Source of the DNA: Escherichia coli
Lineage (GTDB): Bacteria > Pseudomonadota > Gammaproteobacteria > Enterobacterales > Enterobacteriaceae
NCBI RefSeq assembly: GCF_003790525.1
Contig: NZ_CP033635.1
Direction: 5' to 3' (one strand)
Length of the DNA stretch: 64,000 nt
Below are positions 19,750-55,908 of this stretch, piece after piece (the stretch's first letter is position 1; each line of letters opens with the position of its first letter). Below the pieces are notes generated by a model that worked only from the letters and a program-made list of their open reading frames with translations, did not search any database and was not told where the DNA came from. Made by a program: the position numbers and the translations under genes.

Positions 19750-20317
19750 GGGCATTACCTCGCAGAGACAGTAGGTCAGGAACCTGAACATCGCGGCGGT
19801 GCAACGCCTGACAGAAAGTTTCTAGCGCGGTATCAAGACGGGTTTGCAGATTTGGCGTGAATAGCGGCTTGTGCTGGTAATCAATCACCTGCGAGTCATC
19901 GGCAAACACGCCGTGCAGGATCTCCTGGGCTTTCAACGCACTTAAAACTGGATTTAGGGCATAATCGACCGCCAGTAGATGAGCCACGGTGCCGCCCGTC
20001 GCCAGCGGCAACACGACTTTGCCTTGCAGCGCGCGTTCTGGCAGCAGGTCGAGGAGCGTTTTCAGTGCACCGGAATAGGCTGCTTTATACACAGGCGTGG
20101 CGACAATCAGCCCATCAGCCTGTTGCAGCTGTTCGGTGAAGGTCTTGAGTGCCGGACTATCGAAACGGGCATAAAGCAGATCTTCCGGGGCGAAGTTTTG
20201 CAGATTCCAGTGATAAATCTCTACATCCAGGCCATTTAGTTTTTCCCGCGCATATTCCAGCAAGGAGCTGGAGCGAGAAGGAAAGCGAGGACTTCCTGCC
20301 AGGGTGATGACACGCAT
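19742..20317 (-). CDS. ssuE: NADPH-dependent FMN reductase, 191 aa
   Basis: Flavin reductase fold; first gene of the ssu operon; 8-nt overlap with the ssuA start. Confidence 0.92.
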   Translation of the reverse strand: MRVITLAGSPRFPSRSSSLLEYAREKLNGLDVEIYHWNLQNFAPEDLLYARFDSPALKTFTEQLQQADGLIVATPVYKAAYSGALKTLLDLLPERALQGKVVLPLATGGTVAHLLAVDYALNPVLSALKAQEILHGVFADDSQVIDYQHKPLFTPNLQTRLDTALETFCQALHRRDVQVPDLLSLRGNAHA

Positions 20318-20671
20318 ACTCTCTCCTTATAACCAATTGTTCTTGTTTTGTTAACATTGATAACAATTCGGTCAGTCTGTCGGAGAGACAAGAGAATGCC
20401 AAATATAAATTTTGTGTATCTTTTTCTGAAAATGAACTAAGGATTGAGGGATATATATCACGTGTATTTATTTATTGGATATTCAATAGATGTTGAATCA
20501 ATGAATTACTCGTTCAGGTAATAAAGAAAGATTCATGGAATCTATAAATAAAAGATTTGTCACGTATTGAGTAAACACTACTGGTTTAAATGGCGGTCAT
20601 TTGTTGTTATTATTAAGTCCAATGTCATTTGCAGGCATTATCATATTTACGAAAAAATCAGGATGATAACG
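20318..20671. promoter_or_regulatory. AT-rich divergent control region between ssuE and elfA
   Basis: About 350 bp of strongly AT-rich sequence separating the divergent operons; compatible with the Cbl/CysB-dependent ssu promoter and H-NS-silenced elf promoter. Confidence 0.5.
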
Positions 20672-21211
20672 ATGAAAAAAAATGTATTGGCGGCGTTTAT
20701 AACTGTGATATGTACAACTTCAAGTGTTATGGCGGCTGATGATAATGCCATCACGGATGGCTCGGTTACGTTTAATGGTAAAGTCATTGCTCCTGCCTGT
20801 ACGCTGGTTGCTGCGACGAAAGATTCCGTGGTGACTTTACCAGATGTTAGTGCAACGAAGTTGCAAAGTAATGGTCAGGTTTCTGGGGTGCAAACTGATG
20901 TGCCAATTGCATTAGAAGATTGTGATATTACCGTAACAAAAAATGCAACGTTCACTTTTAATGGCACAGCGGATACTACGCAGATTACAGCGTTTGCTAA
21001 CCAGGCCTCATCTGAGGCTGCTACAAACGTGGCCCTGCAAATGTATATGAATGATGGTACAACGGTCATTACGCCAGACACAGAAACCGGGAATATTTTG
21101 TTGCAGAGTGGAAATCAAACGCTAACTTTTAAAGTAGATTATATCGCTACGGGTAAAGCGACGTCAGGTAATGTCAATGCGGTAACAAATTTCCATATTA
21201 ATTATTATTAA
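20672..21211 (+). CDS. elfA: Fimbrial major subunit ElfA (YcbQ), 179 aa
   Basis: Signal peptide MKKNVLAAFITVICTTSSVMA, conserved pilin cysteine pair, C-terminal aromatic donor strand; RBS (agga) 6-9 nt upstream of this ATG; the ORF-track upstream extension is rejected. Confidence 0.9.
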   Translation: MKKNVLAAFITVICTTSSVMAADDNAITDGSVTFNGKVIAPACTLVAATKDSVVTLPDVSATKLQSNGQVSGVQTDVPIALEDCDITVTKNATFTFNGTADTTQITAFANQASSEAATNVALQMYMNDGTTVITPDTETGNILLQSGNQTLTFKVDYIATGKATSGNVNAVTNFHINYY

Positions 21212-21241
21212 TATCAGCCATTAATTTTTAATTAATTAATA

Positions 21242-21277
21242 CCCTTCCAGTGTCCTGGAGGGGATATTCATTTTTTT
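21242..21277 (+). terminator. Intra-operon attenuator/terminator hairpin after elfA
   Basis: 9-bp stem cccuuccag / cuggagggg (one G-U pair) with a 5-nt loop followed by auauucauuuuuuu; such partial terminators after major pilin genes set the subunit:assembly-protein ratio. Confidence 0.6.
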
Positions 21278-21291
21278 AAGAGTGACTATTT

Positions 21292-21993
21292 ATGAAAACT
21301 TGCATAACAAAGGGAATTGTGACCGTAAGTTTAACGGCAATATTACTCAGCTGTTCGTTCACATGGGCGGCAGGTAAAGGTGGGGTCGGACTTGCAGCAA
21401 CACGTCTTGTTTATTCGGAAGGTGAAGAGCAAATTTCACTGGGTGTACGTAACACCAGTCCGGATGTTCCTTATCTGATTCAGTCATGGGTGATGACACC
21501 AGATAATAAAAAGTCAGCGGACTTTATTATTACACCACCGCTATTTGTGCTGAATCCGGCAAACGAGAACCTGCTACGCATTATGTACATTGGCGCGCCG
21601 TTGGCGAAAGACAGAGAAACTCTTTTCTTCACCAGCGTACGGGCAGTCCCTTCAACAACGAAGCGGGAAGAAGGCAATACCCTGAAGATTGCCACACAAA
21701 GCGTCATCAAACTTTTCTGGCGACCAAAAGGTTTAGCGTATCCCTTAGCCGAGGCTCCGGCGAAACTACGTTGCACTTCGTCAGCTGACATGGTTACGGT
21801 CAGTAACCCAACACCTTATTTCATTACCCTGACAGACCTGAAAATAGGTGGAAAAGTAGTTAAAAATCAAATGATTTCCCCCTTTGATAAATACCAATTC
21901 TCTCTGCCAATGGGTGCCAAAAACAGCAGCGTAACGTACCGAACTATCAATGACTACGGGGCGGAAACGCCGCAACTCAACTGTAAATCGTAA
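21292..21993 (+). CDS. elfD: Periplasmic pilus chaperone ElfD (YcbR), 233 aa
   Basis: PapD-like chaperone fold with signal peptide. Confidence 0.9.
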   Translation: MKTCITKGIVTVSLTAILLSCSFTWAAGKGGVGLAATRLVYSEGEEQISLGVRNTSPDVPYLIQSWVMTPDNKKSADFIITPPLFVLNPANENLLRIMYIGAPLAKDRETLFFTSVRAVPSTTKREEGNTLKIATQSVIKLFWRPKGLAYPLAEAPAKLRCTSSADMVTVSNPTPYFITLTDLKIGGKVVKNQMISPFDKYQFSLPMGAKNSSVTYRTINDYGAETPQLNCKS

Positions 21994-22017
21994 TTCGTCT
22001 TCATTTAAGAGAGCGAG

Positions 22018-24600
22018 ATGTATAGAACTCAACGACAACACAGCCTGTTAAGCTCTGGTGGAGTGCCATCGTTTATTGGTGGGCTGGTGGTGTTTGTGTC
22101 GGCAGCGTTCAATGAACAAGCTGAAACCTGGTTCGATCCAGCCTTTTTCAAAGATGATCCCTCAATGGTGGCTGATTTGTCTCGTTTCGAAAAAGGGCAA
22201 AAAATAACGCCAGGGGTTTATCGAGTCGATATTGTTCTGAATCAGACAATTGTAGATACGCGCAACGTCAATTTTGTTGAGATAACGCCAGAGAAGGGGA
22301 TTGCCGCCTGTTTGACGACTGAAAGCCTGGATGCAATGGGCGTGAATACTGATGCGTTTCCGGCTTTTAAACAACTGGATAAACAAGCGTGTGCGCCATT
22401 GGCGGAAATTATTCCGGATGCCAGCGTAACTTTTAATGTGAATAAACTCCGTCTGGAAATTTCAGTACCGCAAATCGCCATCAAAAGTAACGCTCGTGGT
22501 TATGTCCCCCCTGAACGTTGGGATGAAGGGATCAACGCGCTATTACTGGGATATTCTATTCATAGCAGCGCAGGTAGTGATTCTGGCGACAGCTATTTTC
22601 TGAATTTAAACAGTGGCGTTAATTTAGGCCCATGGAGATTGCGCAACAATTCAACATGGAGTCGCAGTAGTGGCCAAACCGCAGAATGGAAGAATCTCAG
22701 CAGCTATTTGCAGCGGGCGGTGATTCCATTAAAAGGCGAACTGACCGTCGGTGATGATTATACGGCAGGCGATTTTTTTGATAGCGTCAGCTTTCGTGGC
22801 GTGCAGCTGGCGTCAGATGACAACATGCTGCCAGACAGCTTGAAAGGGTTTGCGCCAGTGGTGCGTGGTATCGCCAAAAGCAATGCACAGGTAACGATTA
22901 AGCAAAATGGTTACACCATCTATCAAACTTATGTTTCGCCTGGCGCTTTTGAGATTAGTGATCTCTACTCTACGTCGTCGAGTGGTGATTTGTTGGTTGA
23001 AATCAAAGAAGCTGACGGTAGTGTCAATAGTTACAGTGTGCCCTTTTCCAGCGTGCCATTACTCCAGCGTCAGGGACGCATCAAATATGCGGTGACGCTG
23101 GCGAAATACAGAACCAATAGTAATGACCAGCAAGAAAGTAAATTTGCTCAGGCCACGCTGCAATGGGGTGGGCCGAGGGGAACGACCTGGTATGGCGGAG
23201 GGCAATATGCTGAATATTACCGTGCCGCTATGTTTGGTCTGGGTTTTAACCTCGGCGATTTCGGAGCAATTTCGTTCGACGCGACCCAGGCTAAAAGTAC
23301 GCTGGCAGACCAAAGTGAACATAAAGGGCAGTCATATCGTTTTCTGTATGCCAAAACGCTCAACCAATTGGGCACCAACTTTCAATTGATGGGCTACCGC
23401 TATTCGACGTCGGGTTTCTACACCCTTTCCGACACTATGTATAAACACATGGATGGCTACGAATTTAATGACGGTGATGATGAAGATACGCCAATGTGGT
23501 CGCGTTATTACAATTTGTTTTACACAAAACGTGGCAAACTGCAGGTCAACATCTCCCAGCAATTAGGCGAGTACGGTTCGTTTTATTTAAGCGGTAGCCA
23601 GCAAACTTACTGGCATACCGATCAACAGGATCGGCTATTACAGTTTGGCTACAACACGCAAATTAAAGATCTCTCGCTGGGGGTTTCCTGGAACTACAGT
23701 AAGTCCCGTGGTCAACCTGACGCTGACCAGGTGTTTGCACTTAATTTTTCCCTGCCGCTCAATCTGTTGCTCCCCAAAAGTAATGATAGCTATACCAGGA
23801 AAAAAAATTACGCCTGGATGACCTCTAATACCAGTATCGATAACGAAGGGCACACTACACAAAACCTGGGTTTAACGGAGACACTACTCGATGACGGTAA
23901 TCTGAGCTACAGCGTGCAACAGGGATATAACAGCGAGGGGAAAACGGCTAATGGTAGCGCCAGCATGGACTACAAAGGGGCGTTTGCAGATGCTCGAGTG
24001 GGCTACAACTACAGCGATAACGGCAGTCAACAACAACTGAACTACGCTCTTTCAGGCAGTTTAGTTGCCCATTCGCAGGGTATTACGTTGGGTCAATCAT
24101 TGGGTGAAACTAATGTCCTGATTGCCGCGCCAGGCGCCGAAAATACTCGTGTGGCGAACAGCACCGGGCTGAAAACTGACTGGCGTGGATATACCGTTGT
24201 GCCTTATGCCACTTCTTATCGGGAAAATCGAATTGCACTTGATGCGGCGTCGTTAAAACGTAACGTGGATCTTGAAAATGCCGTAGTAAACGTGGTTCCC
24301 ACCAAAGGGGCATTGGTTCTGGCGGAGTTCAATGCCCATGCGGGGGCTAGGGTATTAATGAAAACATCAAAGCAGGGTATGCCGCTGAGATTTGGTGCAA
24401 TGGCAACACTGGATGGCGCACAAACAATTAGCGGTATCATTGATGATGATGGTTCGCTCTATATGTCTGGTTTGCCGGCGAAGGGAACGATAACTGTACG
24501 CTGGGGCGACGCTCCCGATCAAATTTGTCATATCAGTTACGAGCTTACCGAACAACAAATTAACGCTGCGATTACGCGGATGGATTCAGTATGCGAATAA
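22018..24600 (+). CDS. elfC: Outer-membrane fimbrial usher ElfC (YcbS), 860 aa here
   Basis: Large usher-family beta-barrel protein with conserved C-terminal cysteine pair; an in-frame stop 4 codons upstream fixes the start. Confidence 0.9.
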
Positions 24601-25661
24601 TTTCAGGGGATAGTAGTGTGTTAAGACTCCGGCTTCTTTTGACTGCTGTTTTAATGCTGTGGGGATTTCATGCCGCCGCTTATACCGGGCAGTGTCATAC
24701 CACTCAGGGGAATCCGTATATTGGCGTCAATTTTGGCGTTAAAACCCTGGAGGAGGAAGAGAATACGGCTGGAAAAGTCAAAGATGAATTTTATCAGTGG
24801 AGTGAATCGAATGATTATTATGTTTCCTGCGATTGCGATAAAGACAATGTCAGAAGTGGTCTATGGGCATTCGCTGCGGATTCTCCGTTAGTTTATTTGG
24901 GCGACAACTGGTACAAAATTAACGATTATCTTGCCGCAAAGGTGCTATTAGGAGTGAAAGGTAACACACCTTCGGCCGTACCTTTTGAAAATCTCGGTAC
25001 AGGAAGTGATACCCGATGGCATATTTGCGATCCCGGTGGTCAACGTTTGGGCGGCAAGGGGGCAAGCGGCAATAGCGGAAGTTTTTCACTGAAAATATTG
25101 CAGCCGTTTGTCGGTTCGGTCGTCATTCCTCCTATGGCGCTGGCGCGACTATATGAGTGTTACAACATACCCGCAAGTGATTCCTGCACGACTACAGGTA
25201 CACCGGTTTTAGTGTATTACCTGTCTGGTACGATTAATTCACTTGGCTCATGTTCTGTCAATTCTGGAGAGACAATAGAGGTTGATTTGGGGGATGTATT
25301 TGCTGCCAATTTCCGTGTTGTAGGGCATAAACCGCTTGGATCCAGAACGGCAGAACTCTCAATTCCAGTCAGGTGTAATACCGGAAACGCAGAGCTGGTT
25401 AATGTTAATTTGAGTCTGACGGCAACCAGTGATCCCGATTATCCTCAGGCAATCAAGACATCACGACCAGGTGTCGGTGTTGTGGTCACCGACAGCCAAA
25501 ACAACATTATTTCGCCTGCCGGTGGCACACTGCCGCTATCCATCCCTGACGACGCGGACAGCTTCGCTCGAATGAATGTTTATCCGGTCAGCACGACAGG
25601 TGTACCACCGGAAACCGGGAGCTTTGAAGCCACAGCAACGGTGAGAATAAACTTTGACTGA
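24591..25661 (+). CDS. elfG: Fimbrial tip adhesin-like protein ElfG (YcbT), 356 aa
   Basis: Two-domain fimbrial protein (lectin-like N-terminal part plus pilin domain); 10-nt overlap with elfC. Confidence 0.88.
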
Positions 25662-25672
25662 TATGTGAACGT

Positions 25673-26215
25673 ATGAAAAAGAACACAATATTTCAAGTCG
25701 TTATCTTATCATTCACTTTGCTTTATATGCATGTCGGGATAGCTGGACCTGAACAAGTCAGTATGCATATTTATGGTAATGTGGTCGATCAGGGCTGTGA
25801 TGTTGCCACCAAAAGTGCATTACAAAATATTCATATTGGTGATTTTAATATCAGTGATTTTCAGACCGCGAATACCGTAAGCACTGCTGCTGATTTGAAT
25901 ATCGATATCACCGGTTGTGCCGCTGGTATTACTGGCGCGGACGTCCTTTTTAGCGGCGAGGCTGACACCCTTGTGCCGACACTGCTCAAATTAACTGACA
26001 CAGGCGGAAGCGGTGGTATGGCAACGGGGATTGCTGTGCAAATTCTTGATGCGCAAAGTCAGCAAGAAATCCCGCTCAATCAGGTCCTACCTCTTACGCC
26101 CTTAAAAGCCGGGGATAACACACTCAAATATCAACTTCGTTATAAGTCCACAAAGGCGGGAGCAACGGGCGGTAATGCGACGGCGGTTCTCTATTTTGAT
26201 CTGGTTTACCAGTGA
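25673..26215 (+). CDS. ycbU: Fimbrial-like minor subunit YcbU, 180 aa
   Basis: Pilin-like with signal peptide and C-terminal Y-rich strand (LYFDLVYQ). Confidence 0.88.
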   Translation: MKKNTIFQVVILSFTLLYMHVGIAGPEQVSMHIYGNVVDQGCDVATKSALQNIHIGDFNISDFQTANTVSTAADLNIDITGCAAGITGADVLFSGEADTLVPTLLKLTDTGGSGGMATGIAVQILDAQSQQEIPLNQVLPLTPLKAGDNTLKYQLRYKSTKAGATGGNATAVLYFDLVYQ

Positions 26216-52992: not shown

Positions 52993-53318
52993 ATACATTT
53001 TACCGGTTTTGGCAGGCCAGCAATTTTGGTGGCTTGCTTAGCCGGACCTTTCGGAAACAGTCGGTATAAATAGCGGCTGTTACCTTTTTCTTCGCCAAAT
53101 TTATTCGCCATCGCTTTTACCAGCATACGAATCGCCGGAGAAGTATTGAATTCCAGATAGAAATCACGCACAAAACGCACCACTTCCCAGTGTTCTGGCG
53201 ACAGCGCAATCCCTTCGTTCTCTGCAATCACCACCGCCAGTGGCTCACTCCACTGGCTGCTTTCTTTGAGATAGCCTTCGGTATCCGTTTCTATCTCTTT
53301 ACCTTCGAAGATCAGCAT
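52989..53318 (-). CDS. tusE: Sulfurtransferase TusE (YccK), DsrC-like, 109 aa
   Basis: DsrC-family sequence with conserved C-terminal cysteine; stop overlaps the acyP stop. Confidence 0.9.
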
Positions 53319-53409
53319 AATTCTTTACTACCTTAATCAGACTGGCGGCAGTGTAACAAAAAACAAAGCCCCGCATAAAGCGAGGCTATGAAAGTGTTAG
53401 CGGGTGAGA

Positions 53410-54069
53410 TTAATCGCGGCTGGCGAAGCCCAGAATGCTCAGCAGGCTGACGAAGATGTTGTACAGCGAAACATACAGGCTAACCGTGGCACGAATATAG
53501 TTCGTTTCACCGCCATGAATGATGTTGCTGGTTTCAAACAAAATAGCGCCAGAGGAGATCAGAATGAAGACCGCGCTGATCGCCAGATGCAGGGCAGGCA
53601 GCTGCAGGAAGATATTAGCAACCATACCAATCAGCACCACCACAATACCCGCCATCAGCATACCGCCAAGGAACGACATATCTTTGCGGGTGGTCAGCAC
53701 ATACGCAGAGCAGCAGAAGAACACTAACGCCGTTCCGCCCAGTGCCATAGCGATTACGTCACCCATTCCGGCAGACAGGTAGGTGTTCAGAATTGGTCCG
53801 AGGATATATCCCAGAAAACCGGTAAAGGCGAATGCGGAGATAATCCCGGTCGGCTTATTCGCCGTTTTATAGGTCAGGAACATCAAACCATACATACCCA
53901 CCAGCGTCAGAATCAGACCCGGAGATGGCAGCATCAGCACCGTACTGGCAGTTGCGGTAATCGCCGAAAAGGCCAGCGTCAGGCTCAGCAGAAAATAGGT
54001 ATTACGCAGCACCTTATGGGTGCTAAGCAGTGATGTACGGTCATGTGAAGAACTAACAATACGATCCAT
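53410..54069 (-). CDS. yccA: Bax-inhibitor-1 family inner membrane protein YccA (FtsH modulator), 219 aa
   Basis: Seven-helix BI-1-like membrane protein; matches YccA. Confidence 0.92.
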
Positions 54070-54240
54070 TGAGTCACTCTCTATGACAGATGTAATTAAT
54101 TAAGCAGCATAATGATAATGCGTAAGGGCACCCAGAAGTTTTACCCATCTTTACGCATTTGATCTGGAACAGGTTTAACAGCGGATTATCAGGTCATTAA
54201 GCAAATATAACGCCCTGAGAATTTCGACAGGCAAAAGAAA

Positions 54241-54275
54241 AAGGGGTTAGCATTTAGCTAACCCCTTATCTTATT
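54241..54275 (-). terminator. Intrinsic terminator of serT
   Basis: Hairpin aaggggttagc...gctaacccctt immediately 3' of the tRNA on the minus strand, followed by a T-rich run. Confidence 0.65.
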
Positions 54276-54363
54276 TGGCGGAAGCGCAGAGATTCGAACT
54301 CTGGAACCCTTTCGGGTCGCCGGTTTTCAAGACCGGTGCCTTCAACCGCTCGGCCACACTTCC
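54276..54363 (-). tRNA. serT: tRNA-Ser (UGA anticodon), 88 nt, class II tRNA with long variable arm
   Basis: Minus-strand sequence GGAAGTGTGGCCGAGCGGTTGAAGGCACCGGTCTTGAAAACCGGCGACCCGAAAGGGTTCCAGAGTTCGAATCTCTGCGCTTCCGCCA: acceptor stem pairs, anticodon loop CT-TGA-AA, encoded CCA end. Confidence 0.93.
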
Positions 54364-54375
54364 GGAATGACGCGC

Positions 54376-54404
54376 ACTATAAACATCCCGATGCGGCGTG
54401 TAAA
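54376..54404 (-). promoter_or_regulatory. serT sigma-70 promoter
   Basis: Minus-strand TTTACA (-35), 17-bp spacer, TATAGT (-10), then a GC-rich discriminator (gcgcg) about 12 nt before the mature tRNA 5' end. Confidence 0.7.
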
Positions 54405-54789
54405 CCCCTAATTTGTTTGTTTGCCTGAAAAACAGCCAAAAGTGCATTGATAGCGTGAAATAACAGCAGATTGATCATTTCATCACCATGAATTCCTTCT
54501 CTTTTACTCGTTTGGCAACCGGCTAAACATCCCCACTGCCCGGCAAAAAGAAAAATAGGTCCATTTTTATCGCTAAAAGATAAATCCACACAGTTTGTAT
54601 TGTTTCGTGCAAAAGTTTCACTACGCTTTATTAACAATACTTTCTGGCGACGTGCGCCAGTGCAGAAGGATGAGCTTTCGTTTTCAGCATCTCACGTGAA
54701 GCGATGGTTTGCCTTGCTACAGGGACGTCGCTTGCCGACCATAAGCGCCCGGTGTCCTGCCGGTGTCGCAAGGAGAAGAGACGTGCGAT

Positions 54790-55908
54790 ATGAATAACGA
54801 GGAAACATTTTACCAGGCCATGCGGCGTCAGGGCGTTACCCGGCGCAGCTTTCTCAAATATTGCAGTCTGGCTGCCACGTCGCTGGGATTAGGCGCGGGA
54901 ATGGCACCAAAGATTGCCTGGGCGCTGGAGAACAAACCGCGCATTCCGGTGGTATGGATCCACGGTCTGGAATGCACCTGCTGTACCGAATCTTTTATCC
55001 GCTCCGCTCACCCGCTGGCAAAGGACGTCATCCTTTCCCTGATTTCCCTCGATTACGACGATACTTTGATGGCTGCCGCCGGAACCCAGGCGGAAGAAGT
55101 CTTTGAAGACATCATCACGCAATACAATGGCAAATATATCCTCGCAGTAGAAGGTAATCCGCCGCTGGGCGAGCAGGGGATGTTCTGTATCAGCAGCGGA
55201 CGACCGTTTATTGAGAAACTCAAACGTGCCGCTGCCGGAGCCAGTGCGATTATCGCCTGGGGAACCTGCGCGTCCTGGGGCTGCGTGCAGGCCGCGCGAC
55301 CCAATCCGACGCAGGCAACGCCTATCGACAAAGTCATCACCGACAAACCTATTATCAAAGTACCTGGCTGCCCGCCGATCCCGGATGTGATGAGCGCCAT
55401 CATTACTTACATGGTGACCTTTGATCGCTTGCCAGATGTCGACAGAATGGGCCGTCCGTTGATGTTCTATGGTCAGCGAATCCACGATAAATGCTATCGC
55501 CGCGCCCACTTCGACGCCGGAGAGTTCGTCCAGAGTTGGGACGATGACGCTGCCCGCAAAGGTTACTGCCTGTACAAAATGGGCTGCAAAGGGCCTACCA
55601 CCTATAACGCCTGTTCCTCCACACGCTGGAATGATGGCGTTTCTTTCCCAATCCAGTCTGGTCACGGCTGCCTGGGCTGTGCGGAAAATGGTTTCTGGGA
55701 TCGCGGTTCGTTCTACAGCCGCGTGGTCGATATTCCGCAAATGGGTACTCATTCCACCGCCGATACCGTCGGCTTAACCGCGCTTGGCGTGGTGGCAGCG
55801 GCTGTTGGTGTGCACGCAGTCGCCAGCGCCGTTGACCAGCGCAGACGTCATAACCAGCAACCTACAGAAACCGAACATCAGCCAGGCAATGAGGATAAAC
55901 AGGCATGA
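54790..55908 (+). CDS. hyaA: Hydrogenase-1 small subunit, 372 aa, Tat signal
   Basis: Twin-arginine motif [12 protein letters not shown]; Fe-S cluster cysteines; C-terminal membrane anchor; start placed at [15 protein letters not shown]. Confidence 0.95.

Follow-up and report, generated by a model that had tools for sequence, protein, structure and literature searches.

The single tRNA gene that ARAGORN detected in the analyzed window, a 64-kb stretch of Escherichia coli DNA, is a tRNA-Ser gene with anticodon TGA, 88 nt in length and located on the minus strand at 54276-54363. The Rfam tRNA family RF00005 matches the same interval with 57.5 bits (gathering score 29), and both tools thus agree with the preliminary description of this locus, in which an 88-nt tRNA-Ser had been read from the letters. 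At the gathering threshold, Rfam reported only this tRNA and a PyrD leader across the whole window. The mature sequence starts with GGAAGTG and ends with a gene-encoded CCA, and its fold contains acceptor, anticodon and T arms together with a long variable arm. The counterpart in E. coli K-12 MG1655 is annotated as serT (b0971, tRNA-Ser(UGA)) and the window gene is 100% identical to it. On the basis of ARAGORN, Rfam, the fold and the identity to K-12 we assign the gene as serT. tRNA-SerT is the only dedicated decoder of UCA codons and is essential (PMC11805395, PMC11705081). Given its identity to the K-12 gene, the copy in the window is expected to be expressed, aminoacylated and active in UCA decoding.

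The tRNA gene is located between two protein-coding genes. As serT is on the minus strand, a point left unstated in the preliminary description, its downstream direction points toward lower coordinates and toward yccA (FtsH protease modulator; 53410-54069, minus strand), which is separated from the serT 3' end by 206 bp and was identified from the open reading frame list and the RefSeq annotation of E. coli SMS-3-5. On the other side, 427 bp upstream of serT, is the divergent hyaA (hydrogenase 1 small subunit; 54790-55908, plus strand). Between yccA and the divergent hya operon, serT appears to form a small minus-strand transcription unit of its own, and candidate signals for such a unit are found at both of its ends. 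A consensus scan revealed a -35 hexamer TTTACA (54399-54404, minus strand; identical in K-12) and a -10 hexamer TATAGT (54376-54381, minus strand) with a 17-nt spacer, within the range of 16-18 nt. Together (54404 to 54376) they match the consensus at 10 of 12 positions and thus resemble a near-consensus sigma-70 promoter. Between the -10 hexamer and the mature 5' end of serT lie 12 nt, which read as a G+C-rich discriminator, GCGCGTC (54369-54375, minus strand), followed by ATTCC. With this arrangement, transcription would start at approximately position 54368, and RNase P could remove the resulting short leader of ~5 nt (ATTCC) to generate the mature 5' end. G+C-rich discriminators in promoters of stable RNA genes are associated with stringent and growth-rate control; by extension from other stable RNA genes, GCGCGTC may render the serT promoter sensitive to ppGpp and DksA.

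At the other end of the gene, the encoded CCA is followed by AATAAGAT, a hairpin of the form AAGGGGTTAGC-TAAAT-GCTAACCCCTT that starts 8 nt past the CCA, and the T-run TTTTTCTTTT. We consider this element to be the putative intrinsic terminator of serT, of the native type (54231-54267, minus strand). Its stem (54267 to 54241) comprises 11 pairs, 6 of which are G-C, and encloses a 5-nt loop, while the T-run occupies 54231-54240. The segment folds with -21.6 kcal/mol (z = -6.0), and none of 200 shuffled sequences was as stable. The hairpin and T-run would end serT transcription, after which RNase P and 3' exonucleases would be expected to trim the precursor. The promoter and terminator are consensus matches, and a scan of 1 kb returned 2 sites of each kind where chance alone would give 1.2 and 1.3. 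What makes the two signals credible is accordingly where they lie with respect to the tRNA and that they are identical to K-12, not the scan score, and their activity is predicted on these grounds. The -35/-10 promoter of serT's own, the G+C-rich discriminator and the intrinsic terminator named in the preliminary description were thus all recovered. The two limits of the span it had delimited, 54241-54404, coincide with the foot of the terminator stem and with the first base of the -35 hexamer, and only the T-run falls outside.

Comparison with K-12 MG1655 revealed 100% identity throughout the stretch that begins with the serT promoter, includes the tRNA and its terminator, and ends after the 206-bp spacer at the start of yccA. 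The sequence between the 3' end of the tRNA and yccA is therefore native, as had been proposed. On the opposite side, the 427-bp spacer between serT and hyaA carries 5 substitutions relative to K-12, all in the hya-proximal part, and no insertion or deletion. The K-12 locus is like that of the window in the gene itself, its signals and the order yccA-serT-hyaA, and differs from it only by these 5 substitutions. An even closer match was found in E. coli SMS-3-5, where a 1.7-kb query that covers yccA and the tRNA and reaches into the first part of hyaA is 100% identical and where the RefSeq annotation names the neighbors as yccA, tRNA-Ser and hyaA. Over its full 64 kb, the window differs from the SMS-3-5 chromosome (NC_010498.1) by 2 substitutions and one 18-bp deletion and by nothing else. 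These three differences led us to reject the possibility that the window is the exact SMS-3-5 sequence. SMS-3-5, an environmental isolate of a lineage that we take to belong to phylogroup F, is nevertheless a very close relative, and DNA beyond the window was read from its near-identical chromosome.

We found no mobile element at serT. No second copy of the 33-nt 3' end of the tRNA is present in the window when up to 3 mismatches are allowed, and a search for repeats of the serT 3' end on both strands of 180 kb of SMS-3-5 with the locus at their center, with queries ranging from a 60-mer (up to 10 mismatches allowed) to exact 12-mers, returned only the gene itself. In agreement, megablast with the 1.7-kb query placed the locus at one position in the whole SMS-3-5 chromosome. 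When homologues of the integrase and of the DUF4224 protein encoded by serT-type prophages were sought by tblastn in the window and in the 180 kb of SMS-3-5, only chance matches were obtained (E 1-9). According to the SMS-3-5 annotation, no integrase, recombinase or transposase is encoded across the range of the window, and no integrase is annotated within ~105 kb on the yccA side. These ~105 kb consist only of core genes (tusE, rlmI, helD, ompA, pqiABC, uup, pyrD, the elf and ssu operons, pepN, ompF, mukFEB and onward), save for one IS4 transposase ~71 kb away. On the hya side, the SMS-3-5 annotation likewise lists only core genes for at least 69 kb. The G+C content is flat at the locus (0.51-0.52 on both sides), with no shift in base composition. 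Repeats within 53300-55300 were limited to two two-copy families of 15-16 nt that are unrelated to the tRNA and that we take as chance, and a scan of the window for tandem repeats returned none. Finally, the 206-bp interval between serT and yccA is native and contains no non-core DNA. The preliminary description had stated that neither an integrase nor a repeat of the tRNA 3' end accompanies the gene, and had proposed a search for a duplicated 3' segment as a check; that search yielded a single copy, both for the window and across the 180 kb of SMS-3-5, and the repeat searches, tblastn and annotation all gave the same negative answer. In the window, serT is unoccupied: it is accompanied by no direct repeat, no integrase and no foreign DNA.

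The 1.7-kb yccA-serT-hyaA query matches 5,425 out of 5,426 complete E. coli genomes. The three genes are contiguous, as in the window, in 4,660 of these 5,425 genomes (~86%). Where the match is split, the break falls at query position 926, corresponding to window position 54335, among the matches listed. We found a lambdoid prophage between serT and yccA in 748/5,425 complete genomes (~14%, about one in seven), a figure that counts the genomes covering a 240-nt query laid across the junction of the displaced serT copy and the integrase arm. The prophage leaves 60 nt duplicated from the 3' portion of the tRNA beside yccA, adjoining genes that encode a tyrosine integrase and a DUF4224 protein. 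The same integrase arm was seen in two more occupied strains, one from swine and one from cattle. serT had been called a potential attachment site, and these numbers show that it is a real one for lambdoid phages. This is consistent with previous reports, in which serT was a prophage site in Shiga toxin-producing E. coli O121:H19 (PMC8767318) and, with insertions in tandem, in CC119 (PMC10132054), and in which serT was listed as an island hotspot (PMC11537424). Outside E. coli, SPI-5 of Salmonella, 9-10 kb in size, is listed as an island inserted at the orthologous tRNA gene (PMC3175032). In contrast to the E. coli elements at serT, SPI-5 is a fixed island and not a prophage; we compared it by description.

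Having identified occupied genomes, we compared the window with the O157:H7 strain ECP19-2498, a comparison with serT-occupied strains having been proposed in the preliminary description. The flanking genes and the tRNA are as in the window. In the O157:H7 strain, however, an intact serT on the hya side is followed by a ~49.7 kb lambdoid prophage and by a 60-nt repeat beside yccA; all of these prophage features are absent from the window. At its yccA-side end, the prophage carries a DUF4224 gene and then a tyrosine integrase gene, beyond which the 3'-terminal 60 nt of serT precede the native terminator and yccA. A three-way alignment of the window with both O157:H7 junctions revealed that the block of identity shared by phage and chromosome is this 60-nt 3' part of serT, starting at tRNA nt 29, in the 5' strand of the anticodon stem, and ending at the CCA. 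In the window, this block corresponds to 54276-54335 (minus strand), which equals the 60 nt duplicated in the lysogen and is present in a single copy. Based on the O157:H7 junctions and on the attP of the phage described below, we define this part of serT as attB. The hya-side copy of serT in the O157:H7 strain continues into a similar but distinct hairpin, AAGGGGTTACCAAATGGTAGCCCCTT, and hence both a terminator and the tRNA 3' part are contributed by the phage. The phage terminator (L004 8431-8470) resembles the native one (54231-54275) without being identical to it, and the pairing of its stem is kept by changes on both strands (GTTAGC/GCTAAC to GTTACC/GGTAGC). The genes carried by the prophage include tail genes, sodC, a Q antiterminator, an exonuclease and pseudogene fragments annotated as EspV and EspF-repeat. 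By our assumption, this element probably corresponds to Sp4 of strain Sakai and CP-933M of strain EDL933.

The phage side of the reaction is represented by Escherichia phage Evi (LR597642.1). It carries ~100 nt that are 91% identical to window positions 54335-54233, which comprise the 3' part of serT and the terminator region, just downstream of its integrase gene. Evi thus provides the attP partner, whereas the window contains the bacterial partner only. Both the O157:H7 and the Evi integrases reach the Pfam threshold for Phage_integrase. Other phage matches to the serT segment, in Stenotrophomonas and Pseudomonas phages, were set aside as far as E. coli is concerned; the match in PhiPA3 lies under an annotated tRNA-Thr, while those in Stenotrophomonas phages fall under no annotated feature.

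Taken together, these comparisons outline the course of integration. A phage tyrosine integrase recombines the identical segment of attP with the 60 nt at the 3' end of serT (attB). The phage-borne 3' part, together with its own terminator, completes the tRNA gene, and the original 3' part stays behind as a direct repeat beside yccA. The crossover presumably occurs within the 60-nt block of identity. At tRNA sites of this kind, crossover usually takes place in the anticodon loop, and this is most likely also the case at serT. Since tRNA-SerT is essential as the dedicated UCA decoder, a phage integrating at serT must rebuild the gene. The O157:H7 junctions show that serT is indeed rebuilt after integration.

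The window therefore holds the empty form of a genuine attachment site. We regard it as very nearly certain that the locus as a whole, that is the serT unit together with its empty attB, is the ordinary single-copy serT of E. coli, a textbook gene in its commonest state and already known as such. Nothing in our data contradicts this explanation. The attB of the window is predicted to be competent for recombination, and the strain to be lysogenizable at this site. Somewhat better than even, in our estimation, are the chances that the intact attB leaves the strain open to lambdoid phages that target serT, such as those resembling Evi or Sp4 of O157, with serT remaining expressed in the lysogen through the 3' half and the terminator that such phages bring.

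Three other explanations deserve consideration, none of which we find probable. The first is that serT was once occupied by a prophage that was later precisely excised, in which case "unoccupied" would describe only the present state of the site. We give this history a small but real chance, a figure based on the ~14% of complete E. coli genomes that carry a prophage at serT. Integrase and excisionase are known from lambda-type phages to restore attB exactly, and because of this exact restoration a cured site looks no different from one that has never received a phage. A phage-type terminator following serT, which we looked for in the window as a trace of past occupancy, was not found. The terminator there is of the native type, and the terminator and the 3' flank are as in K-12 and beside the displaced copy of O157:H7, with no positive trace of an earlier prophage. 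A native terminator and flank are predicted by either history and fit an excised and a never occupied site equally well.

According to the second explanation, serT is flanked by the hidden remnant of a degraded island whose integrase has been lost. Such remnants are common at tRNA genes, and a gene of unclear origin encoding a DUF2726 protein adjoins a neighboring tRNA-Ser gene in SMS-3-5. At serT itself, however, the spacers on both sides match K-12 without any insertion or deletion, which leaves no room for a remnant, and the search in 180 kb of SMS-3-5 returned not even a partial copy of the 3' end; we consider a hidden remnant extremely unlikely. We attach just as negligible a probability to the third, an element at serT in the source genome whose far end and integrase lie beyond the window: the flanks do come from SMS-3-5, which is not base-for-base the same as the window, but integration at serT inserts DNA between serT and yccA, an interval that is inside the window and native, and 54 kb of uninterrupted core genes follow on the yccA side within the window. 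For the known mode of integration this explanation is excluded; it would hold only for an element that uses another sublocation, not seen to date, over 10 kb upstream on the hya side.

With the ordinary, unoccupied serT as the preferred explanation, the absence of an island is a correct negative annotation that is itself ordinary and matters little. Its use lies in the bookkeeping of prophage typing and in providing a clean reference sequence for attB. O157:H7 and other Shiga toxin-producing lineages are among the serT-occupied genomes, unlike the window. Should the strain indeed be open to such phages, occupancy of serT would serve as a simple marker of exposure to serT-targeting phages, which in other lineages bring effector-related genes and sodC. 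Openness to lysogeny would in that case extend a known principle to one more strain and would involve no new mechanism.

Several further loci were noted in the course of this analysis. On the yccA side of SMS-3-5, the run of core genes ends with the next tRNA-Ser gene, ~105 kb from serT and located after infA, which by its position we take to be serW. In this region (SMS-3-5 2261374-2266232), it is immediately followed by island-type genes encoding a DUF4942 protein, a CbtA/YeeU toxin-antitoxin pair, a JAB-domain protein, an antirestriction protein and a DUF932 protein. With these genes beside it, serW is occupied, while serT is empty in the same SMS-3-5 genome. A further tRNA-Ser gene (L007 23412-23499), presumably serX as judged from its position beside ghrA, is followed by the DUF2726 gene mentioned above (region SMS-3-5 2109644-2110509, including the tRNA gene), and a small insertion or a remnant may be present there. 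Another prophage integration site, the interval between torS and torT (PMC8767318), contains no prophage in SMS-3-5, and torS itself (2140452-2143195) is annotated there as a frameshifted pseudogene.

The differences between the window and SMS-3-5 fall into two genes. Both the 18-bp deletion and one of the substitutions (22115) affect elfC, which encodes a fimbrial usher (open reading frame 22018-24600, plus strand), and the other substitution (41852) affects ompA. The deletion removes ATTTAGCGGGGCTAACAG at 22556-22557 and is in frame, resulting in a protein of 860 aa versus 866 aa in SMS-3-5. Among 5,426 complete E. coli genomes, the best match to this elfC segment is 98.1%, and thus no complete genome contains the full set of differences; the deletion appears to be unique to the source of the window. 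The surrounding fimbrial operon elfADCG-ycbUVF (20001-26000) has a G+C content of 0.43-0.47, compared with ~0.50-0.57 in the rest of the window. Finally, the PyrD leader detected by Rfam (RF02373; 27484-27557, plus strand) scored 97.9 bits against a gathering score of 47 and is located directly upstream of pyrD.
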